Assembly (NCBI RefSeq): GCF_024223415.1
Contig: NZ_CP100500.1
Reading direction: 5' to 3' (one strand)
Source of the DNA: Escherichia coli
Lineage (GTDB): Bacteria > Pseudomonadota > Gammaproteobacteria > Enterobacterales > Enterobacteriaceae
DNA: 64,000 bases
The notes under the pieces were generated by a model that did not search any database, had not been told where the DNA came from, and was given only the letters and a program-made list of their open reading frames with translations. A program made the position numbers and the translations under genes. This document shows positions 53,359-53,510 of this stretch, piece by piece (positions within the stretch are counted from its first letter, which is position 1; each line of letters begins with the position of its first letter).

Positions 53359-53393
53359 TGCCGGATGCGGCGCGAACGCCTTATCCAGCCTAC
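53359..53393. repeat. REP (repetitive extragenic palindromic) element
   Basis: gccggatgcggcgcgaacgccttatccagcctaca, canonical E. coli REP-like sequence. Confidence 0.8.
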
Positions 53394-53424
53394 AAAGTTG
53401 TGCAAAATCAATGGATTGCACAGG

Positions 53425-53458
53425 TAGCGTAGGCCTGATAAGCGTAGCGCATCAGGCA
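53425..53458. repeat. REP element (inverted relative to the first; together a BIME-like unit)
   Basis: gtaggcctgataagcgtagcgcatcaggca. Confidence 0.8.
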
Positions 53459-53481
53459 GATTTGCGTTTGTCATCAGTTTA

Positions 53482-53510
53482 ATGCCCGGAGAGATCCGGG
53501 CATATTTCCG
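53482..53510. terminator. hairpin between convergent gcd and cueO
   Basis: atgcccgga-gagat-ccgggcat followed by ATTTCC. Confidence 0.5.

Follow-up and report, generated by a model that had tools for sequence, protein, structure and literature searches.

The convergent intergenic region between gcd and cueO in the Escherichia coli DNA analysed here (a single stretch of 64 kb, called the window) very probably holds two objects of different age: a 150-bp BIME-1 and an older bidirectional terminator shared by the two genes, with the repeat inserted after the gcd stop codon and ahead of the terminator. Descriptions of BIME-1 repeats, which also go by the names RIB ('reiterative IHF BIME') and RIP ('repetitive IHF-binding palindromic element'), date back to the early 1990s. 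The gcd-cueO BIME-1 belongs to this well-known class, and its copy is found in K-12 as well. A preliminary description of the locus had noted a BIME-like pair of inverted REPs followed by a further hairpin and had called the arrangement ordinary for E. coli. The latter judgement was apt, BIME-1 being a textbook type with a copy also in K-12. The inverted pair is likewise present, and the description can be refined to a BIME-1 that has an L linker with an IHF consensus and forms part of a flanked unit of 150 bp.

The spacer between the two genes is 201 bp long (window positions 53322-53522) and has the same layout as in K-12. The gcd gene (50931-53321, + strand, stop codon at 53319-53321) encodes a quinoprotein glucose dehydrogenase of 796 aa and corresponds to b0124 of K-12. 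The cueO gene (53523-55073, - strand, stop codon at 53523-53525) encodes a multicopper oxidase of 516 aa; in K-12 it is b0123, at 137083-138633. Both genes appear in the ORF list, their names come from annotated genomes with 99-100% identity to the window, and homologues of the gcd product at 99% identity carry the name quinoprotein glucose dehydrogenase. A 351-nt query around the spacer is matched with 100% identity in strain AR_0085 and with 99.1% identity in K-12, where a spacer of equal length (201 bp) lies in the opposite orientation at 138634-138834. Mechanical ORFs that run across the REPs (53345-53482 on the + strand and 53259-53474 on the - strand) were dismissed as artefacts of the repeat. 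A short REP-like hairpin lies elsewhere in the window, between can and hpt (50156-50180); it is annotated as REP11 in K-12 and is not of the canonical Y or Z type.

Both REP sequences quoted in the preliminary description were found between gcd and cueO, gccggatgcggcgcgaacgccttatccagcc at 53360-53390 and gtaggcctgataagcgtagcgcatcaggc at 53429-53457, in opposite orientation and recovered as the inverted-repeat pairs I1 and I2. The first lies in a Y-type REP (palindromic unit; 53359-53393, + strand) that runs from a TGCC tail to a CTAC head, with the iREP on the + strand and GTAG on the - strand. The second lies in a Z1-type REP (53428-53458, - strand), the + strand of which starts with the head GTAG at 53429. 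The two head tetranucleotides, CTAC at 53390-53393 and GTAG at 53429-53432, face each other, and the element contains exactly one Y and one Z1 unit, inverted and head-to-head, with no tandem array. Read on the - strand, the Z1 copy matches the published Z1 REP query at 30 of 30 positions, and the Y copy matches the published Y REP query at 32 of 35 (PMC11208160). The Y stem of the window copy carries a G-to-A change (CCAGCC). Shuffling predicts 0.16 occurrences of the REP head motif in the window; the motif was seen at the Y and Z1 sites only, and a seed-and-align scan of the 64-kb window found no canonical Y or Z unit beyond these two.

Each REP is an imperfect palindrome able to form a stem-loop. 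The predicted folding energy of the Y hairpin is -15.1 kcal/mol on the + strand and -18.7 kcal/mol on the - strand, and that of the Z1 hairpin is -12.9 and -13.2 kcal/mol, respectively, with z from -2.5 to -3.5 relative to shuffled sequences. The preliminary description had made the REP call depend on family matches elsewhere in the genome, and such matches are plentiful. In 5,425 of 5,426 complete E. coli genomes the 351-nt spacer query has matches, at a median of 18 places per genome (megablast), and a 160-nt block taken from the spacer gives at least 40 matched pieces in most E. coli genomes (blastn). The idea that the palindromes are chance structures, or ordinary terminators that belong to no repeat family, has nothing in its favour except that hairpins are generally common at gene 3' ends. 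This idea, to which we give practically no credence, is ruled out by the matches to the REP queries, by the tens of copies in every genome and by a 150-bp unit that the locus has in common with four others.

The 35 nt between the REP heads (53394-53428) constitute the L linker of BIME-1. At 53406-53418 on the + strand the linker contains AATCAATGGATTG, which agrees exactly with the IHF consensus WATCAANNNNTTR and is a predicted binding site. The consensus is a weak motif by itself (4 matches in 64 kb versus 2.4 expected), and the match is informative because it is located in the L linker, a sequence reported to bind IHF. Ton-Hoang et al. described BIME-1 as one z1 and one y REP that occur singly, separated by a long and well-conserved linker L that often has an IHF site, and according to Nunvar et al. 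IHF interacts with the stretch between the two REPs of BIME-1. The linkers of four paralogues can be aligned with the 35-nt linker of the window. Its core, TCAAT..ATT, is invariant in 7 aligned orthologous and paralogous copies, and the remainder of the linker varies. The BIME-1 paralogues mostly have TTCAA, whereas the window copy has the exact WATCAA core. Since the REPs enclose a conserved L linker with an exact IHF consensus, the element is, as judged from its sequence, a BIME-1 (RIB/RIP), with all of the sequence-level characters of the class. We infer that IHF can bind the linker DNA, and in the mechanism proposed here it would do so in the cell.

The REPs and the linker form the centre of a larger family unit of 150 bp (53331-53480), in the order left flank, Y, L, Z1 and right flank. 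The left flank AGATTGCTGACAACGTGCGCGTTGTTCA (53331-53358) and the right flank GATTTGCGTTTGTCATCAGTTT (53459-53480) are kept in all paralogues. The two flanks are partly complementary to each other (inverted repeat I4, in which 53335-53343 pairs with 53468-53476), and therefore the entire unit can fold as a single long imperfect hairpin. On the + strand this fold has a predicted energy of -62.0 kcal/mol, versus -47.2 kcal/mol with local pairs only. Relative to shuffled sequences, the whole spacer folds with z = -5.0 (+ strand) and -5.4 (- strand). In the gcd 3'UTR, the RNA would adopt one of two folds, local REP hairpins or a single long, imperfect hairpin.

The limits of the unit were defined with four paralogues, located in sbp-pfkA, fepA-entD, satP-mog and ybiU-ybiT, which were found as the best match to the 160-nt block in genomes without a gcd-cueO copy and were aligned with the window. 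The paralogues have 83-89% identity and cover the query from positions 3-10 to positions 155-159. Similarity extends from AGATTGCTGACAA to TGTCATCAGTYT, and the sequences beyond are unrelated. At the five loci the unit is 150, 150, 150, 150 and 148 bp long, in agreement with the published BIME-1 size of ~140 bp, and all five inspected copies are intergenic. The sbp-pfkA copy is essentially fixed (5,311 of 5,426 genomes), and the ybiU-ybiT locus has a complex polymorphism among genomes.

The gcd-cueO element resembles described BIME-1 elements in nearly every respect: Y and Z1 head-to-head around an L linker, a single copy per locus, ~140-150 bp with flanks, an IHF consensus in the linker, an extragenic location at the 3' end of a transcription unit, and presence or absence among strains. 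The exact WATCAA core and the G-to-A change in the Y stem are the only differences, and neither is of substance. BIME-2 and atypical BIMEs (Y and Z2 arrays, such as REP325/naRNA4) also have alternating REP units in 3' intergenic positions and are substrates of TnpA-REP. However, BIME-2 elements contain Z2 units, have short S, l, r or s linkers, form tandem arrays that vary in copy number and are strong gyrase sites, whereas at gcd-cueO a single Y/Z1 pair encloses an L linker and there is no array. The REPINs of Pseudomonas with their RAYTs, and MITE-like elements, are also short and non-autonomous, with two inverted REPs and a spacer, are dispersed between genes, and have coexisting empty and filled sites. 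They are a different sequence family, the window contains no RAYT gene, and the mobility of E. coli BIME-1 is only inferred.

Parts of the element also resemble RNA families. The Rfam model ES036/CssrF matches 53394-53436 with 30.1 bits, below its gathering score of 37.6, and naRNA4 matches 53354-53390 with 32.1 bits, below its gathering score of 59.5; no Rfam match in the region reaches threshold. The consensus of ES036 is the L linker, and the sub-threshold matches arise because the ES036 and naRNA4 models contain the L linker and a REP. These matches are what speaks for a small RNA of the ES036/CssrF or naRNA type encoded by the region itself. Such a gene is highly improbable, and the reading was rejected because both scores are under threshold. 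Moreover, a scan of the region found no promoter-like site, the element is absent from about half of the genomes, and a role of naRNA4 in chromosome compaction failed to reproduce in a recent preprint.

The further hairpin, ATGCCCGGA-gaga-TCCGGGCAT at 53482-53503 (inverted-repeat pair I3), has a perfect 9-bp stem and is not a REP. Its predicted folding energy is -17.4 kcal/mol on the + strand and -16.0 kcal/mol on the - strand (z about -4.7), and it is invariant across all E. coli alleles examined. In Salmonella enterica the orthologous hairpin immediately follows the gcd stop codon (TAA-CCATTA-ATGCCCGGC-gtat-GCCGGGCAT), with a compensatory change from A-T to C-G at the top of the stem relative to E. 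coli. When species-representative genomes were scanned with the 20-nt hairpin, two Escherichia records were the only matches, and the stem of E. ruysiae differs at 1 base.

The supplementary table of a 2026 preprint, a re-annotation of 306 published bidirectional terminators derived from 3'-end sequencing, lists the hairpin as terminator no. 5 (K-12 138648-138678, stem AUGCCCGGA, gcd:cueO, log and stationary phase, no REP). The K-12 interval corresponds to window positions 53478-53508 and is the overlap of the gcd and cueO transcript ends. According to the table, gcd transcripts end at ~53508, just past the hairpin, with a 3'UTR of ~187 nt that includes the whole BIME-1, and cueO transcripts end at ~53478, before the repeat, with a 3'UTR of ~45 nt that is free of REPs. 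Because the table places both transcript ends on the hairpin, the REPs are located in the gcd 3'UTR only. The preliminary description had suggested stabilisation of the mRNAs of both flanking genes; since cueO transcripts end at the hairpin, this suggestion can apply to gcd only.

A simple terminator scan, which looked for a hairpin followed by a T run, did not call the hairpin at 53482-53503 owing to its weak T tails (ATATTTCC and TTAAACTG), and its status as a terminator therefore rests on the published table of 3' ends. The hairpin resembles the bidirectional intrinsic terminators mapped by SEnd-seq in its position between convergent genes and in the overlapping 3' ends, but differs from that class in its weak U and A tracts. 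With the table taken into account, the hairpin would be the ancestral bidirectional terminator common to gcd and cueO, and it is older than the BIME-1 beside it. The further hairpin of the preliminary description does exist but is not part of the repeat; Salmonella and the mapped 3' ends point to the older terminator.

Comparison of E. coli genomes reveals that the repeat, and not the terminator, differs among strains. Alleles were counted in 5,426 complete E. coli genomes, and the counts are database frequencies rather than frequencies in nature. The long allele, defined by a match to at least 80% of the 351-nt query, is found in 2,739 genomes; it is the allele of the window, K-12 and O157:H7, and it includes a 195-bp variant with a different linker (FY10). 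A 46-bp allele, in which TAA-CCATA is followed by the hairpin, is found in 2,374-2,376 genomes (~44%). A 77-bp allele is found in 95 genomes, including Nissle 1917, ATCC 25922 and 83972, and ~216 genomes have unclassified alleles that include IS insertions. The long allele has a block of 160 bp (53322-53481), which carries the BIME-1, in place of 5 bp (CCATA) of the short allele. REP clusters had been expected in the preliminary description to be hotspots of length variation. Length does vary (2,739 long, ~2,375 short and 95 deleted), but by presence or absence of the whole unit and not by REP copy number, which agrees with the published rule that a BIME-1 is present or absent among isolates.

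The direction of this change can be read from outgroups, which were reached through Gcd homologues and their contigs. The junction of the 46-bp allele (TAA-CCATA-hairpin) is that of Salmonella (TAA-CCATTA-hairpin), and the spacers of two enterobacteria that are further removed, 75 and 50 bp long, hold a single terminator each and are free of a BIME. Because the Salmonella junction matches and the distant enterobacteria have short spacers, the short, BIME-free spacer is the ancestral state and the 160-bp block an insertion. The aligned long, 195-, 77- and 46-bp alleles have no target duplication at the insertion junctions. Since 160 bp replace 5 bp without such a duplication, the mechanism of insertion is not readable from the junctions.

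The 77-bp allele has kept the first 36 nt of the block and has lost the 124 bp between two ATGCC repeats. It is best read as a later microhomology deletion, and the parent was probably an FY10-like long allele because substitutions in the left flank are common to both. Copies of the repeat are also found outside typical E. coli. A lineage that is 92.7% identical over 13 kb (L007) has an orthologous, diverged BIME copy, and E. ruysiae has an orthologue that retains Y and Z1, in which only 13 nt are left of the L linker and no IHF site survives. The short allele is carried by a further divergent lineage (L009). The insertion would appear to be old, or to have been moved between lineages by recombination. 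The presence of the long allele in divergent Escherichia lineages leaves room for some benefit, as opposed to neutrality, in its persistence.

Two alternative readings of the element were considered, and both are rather improbable. The first is that the BIME-1 is kept by selection as a module of the 3'UTR, in which the REP hairpins shield gcd mRNA from 3'-to-5' exonucleases and act as a second, partly Rho-dependent barrier to read-through, stopping cueO transcripts that would otherwise produce antisense gcd RNA. [quoted passage not shown] The gcd-cueO element is strongly structured, the gcd 3'UTR contains it in full, upstream of the 3' end mapped for gcd, and orthologous copies persist in lineages that are ~7% diverged. 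However, the BIME is missing from ~44% of complete E. coli genomes and has been deleted from a further 95, the terminator that has been mapped is the non-REP hairpin, which is there whether or not the BIME is, and the same genome-wide analysis reported no general difference in mRNA half-life for terminal REPs.

The second reading, to which we assign a similarly low probability, is that the element acts mainly as DNA. An IHF-bound (RIB/RIP) and possibly gyrase-bound site would bend the DNA and relieve or insulate the supercoiling caused by convergent transcription. The exact IHF consensus in the L linker, the IHF core as the best-conserved part of the linker across copies, and the reported interaction of IHF with the BIME-1 inter-REP sequence are all consistent with such a site, as is the location between convergent genes, where positive supercoils accumulate. 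On the other hand, the IHF consensus is low in information, given its 4 matches in 64 kb versus 2.4 expected, strong gyrase cleavage has been reported for BIME-2 and not for BIME-1, the E. ruysiae orthologue is without the linker and IHF site, and the entire element is absent in about half of E. coli genomes. A ChIP-seq study of IHF makes no mention of REPs or BIMEs.

The BIME-1 is dispensable at gcd-cueO. A strong adaptive role here is unlikely because about half of the genomes are without the unit and one lineage has deleted it, and because E. ruysiae has lost the IHF linker and the genome-wide analysis reported no half-life difference for genes with terminal REPs. It seems more reasonable that the inserted BIME-1 has at most a modest and dispensable modulating effect on gcd expression, which might consist of protection from 3' exonucleases or of a backstop to cueO read-through into antisense gcd.

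The BIME-1 between gcd and cueO is one member of a non-autonomous repeat family dispersed in E. coli, placed downstream of the gcd stop codon and short of the terminator. Insertion may have been carried out by TnpA-REP/RAYT (REP-associated tyrosine transposase) acting on single-stranded DNA. In published in vitro work, TnpA-REP bound REPs that have GTAG at the 5' end and cut iREPs and linkers at CT; integration by TnpA-REP in vivo is so far a proposal. The substrate features are present in the window copy: GTAG at 53429, TGCC|TGAT on the - strand of Z1, and GCC|TAC at 53388-53393.

Some observations at the five loci concern the site of insertion. In 4 of 5 loci a GC-rich strong hairpin starts 0-2 nt from the end of the unit. 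At satP-mog, K-12 has one copy of the terminator hairpin and no BIME, and in the filled allele two copies of the hairpin bracket the unit, identical at 16 of 19 positions, a score reached by 4 of 5,000 shuffles. A weaker, degenerate second copy of the hairpin is suggested at sbp-pfkA (14 of 19 positions; 102 of 5,000 shuffles reach the score). The target hairpin at gcd-cueO resembles a short REP (TGCCCGGA...TCCGGGCA). It is conceivable, though unlikely, that BIME-1 integrates non-randomly at the base of a terminator hairpin that is already in place, guided by the structure of single-stranded DNA, and that it sometimes duplicates the hairpin. The five loci offer hints of structure-directed integration, which is to be taken as a lead only.

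IS621, a bridge-RNA recombinase element of the IS110 family, is documented to land in the Z1 head. The natural 11-nt IS621 target ATCAGGCCTAC, with its CT core, is exactly the reverse complement of 53429-53439, and the same sequence has been documented as a natural IS621 target (PMC11208160). In strain Br_190_kylling, IS621 is inserted exactly at the Z1 head (reverse complement ATCAGGC-CT-AC), and the occupied allele (L006) has the AG/CT core at both IS621 junctions. An 86-nt junction query matches 1,247 genomes at a coverage of at least 80%, a number to which IS621 beside other BIME-1 linkers also contributes. The Z1 head is occupied by IS621 in some strains, and it is empty in the window copy.

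The element as such matters little. Its significance is that thousands of sequenced E. coli differ at this site only in having or lacking a 150-bp REP-IHF-REP module in the gcd 3'UTR, beside an unchanged terminator, which amounts to a natural experiment. The long and short alleles of gcd-cueO are suited to measuring the effect of the module on mRNA level, on antisense read-through and on the decay of the mRNA. Comparison of empty with filled junctions might also help to explain how BIMEs spread and, should hairpin-directed integration prove to be general, the empty and filled gcd-cueO pair would be a natural substrate for the study of BIME dissemination by TnpA-REP.

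The spacer between the convergent genes gcd and cueO, where the BIME-1 lies, varies among E. coli strains. Strain HM670 has a 77-bp spacer (locus L003, 373-449) in which only the initial 36 nt of the inserted block (window 53322-53481) are retained and the remaining 124 bp are missing. The missing 124 bp correspond to the stretch between two ATGCC repeats, at window 53358-53362 and 53482-53486, and the junction is found in 95 of the 5,426 complete E. coli genomes, including Nissle 1917, ATCC 25922 and 83972. The 77-bp allele thus has the appearance of a BIME-1 deletion that occurred by microhomology within one lineage. 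A different change is seen in strain FY10, whose 195-bp spacer (L004, 373-567) contains a linker 7 nt shorter than that of the window and different at many positions. Because this linker has diverged while the REPs are near-identical, the FY10 sequence suggests either turnover of the linker or conversion from a different BIME-1 copy. Strain E8 has the short, BIME-free allele (L005, 373-443) with a 25-bp tandem duplication, TTATACCGTAAACCCTAACATCATC, across the cueO stop region, resulting in a spacer of 71 bp.

The head of the Z1 REP also serves as an insertion site. IS621 is an IS110-family element with a bridge-RNA recombinase. In strain Br_190_kylling (L006, 2684-3962), IS621 lies inside the Z1 head of the gcd-cueO BIME-1, at the equivalent of window 53432/53433, and strain M8 (match H145) likewise has IS621 in the Z1 head. 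Both junctions contain the AG/CT core, and the target on the minus strand, ATCAGGCCTAC, is identical to the natural target published for IS621. An 86-nt query spanning the linker/IS-end junction was covered over at least 80% of its length in 1,247 genomes, mostly at BIME-1 copies elsewhere.

Hairpins adjoin other BIME-1 copies. At satP-mog in strain FHI_NMBU_03 (L021), a copy of the terminator hairpin is present on each side of the BIME-1, at 380-399 and 552-571, one of them degenerate. The two copies are identical at 16 of 19 positions, a score reached in 4 of 5,000 shuffles. K-12 has one hairpin and no BIME at this locus (L024), and the insertion relative to K-12 amounts to 170 bp, comprising the unit and approximately 20 bp of duplicated hairpin. 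GC-rich hairpins are also located 0-2 nt from the BIME-1 ends at sbp-pfkA (L019, 385-403 and 554-573) and ybiU-ybiT (L022, 555-583). The sbp-pfkA flanks match at 14 of 19 positions (score reached in 102 of 5,000 shuffles), and this BIME-1 copy is nearly fixed, being present in 5,311 of 5,426 genomes.

Within the window, a short REP-like hairpin, tgccggatgcaacacatccggca, occupies 50156-50180 in the spacer that separates can from hpt, another convergent gene pair. In K-12 this hairpin carries the annotation REP11, and it is included, at K-12 141972-142003, among the mapped bidirectional terminators. The Y/Z consensus scan missed this hairpin because it does not have the CTTATC...CTAC head. Only two Rfam matches in the window exceeded the gathering score, both on the minus strand: t44 RNA at 3123-3209, with 83.5 bits, and, at 11366-11411, the HtrA 5'UTR thermometer, with 77 bits. 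At window 53354-53436, naRNA4 (RF02564) matches a REP and ES036/CssrF (RF02751) matches the BIME-1 linker; therefore, these "sRNA" models detect a dispersed DNA repeat.

The orthologous element of Escherichia ruysiae (L017, 4392-4572) retains Y and Z1 but has 13 nt, aaaatcgtatggtgc, in place of the 35-nt L linker (window 53394-53428), and the IHF site is therefore lost. The E. ruysiae terminator stem differs by one base. In the 50-bp, BIME-free spacer of Atlantibacter hermannii, the 12-mer ATTGCTGACAAC, which is the motif of the left flank in the E. coli BIME-1, recurs without mismatch shortly after the gcd stop (L027, 3607-3618). This copy is the sole match within the 4.8-kb locus, and could be either a remnant of an element since lost or a chance match. 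Salmonella enterica harbors a REP-like palindrome, atgccgggtggcggcttcgccttacccggcctgc (L016, 4419-4455), between the shared hairpin and cueO. Since this palindrome differs from the E. coli REPs and lies on the opposite side of the terminator, the gcd-cueO spacer has been colonized independently in Salmonella.
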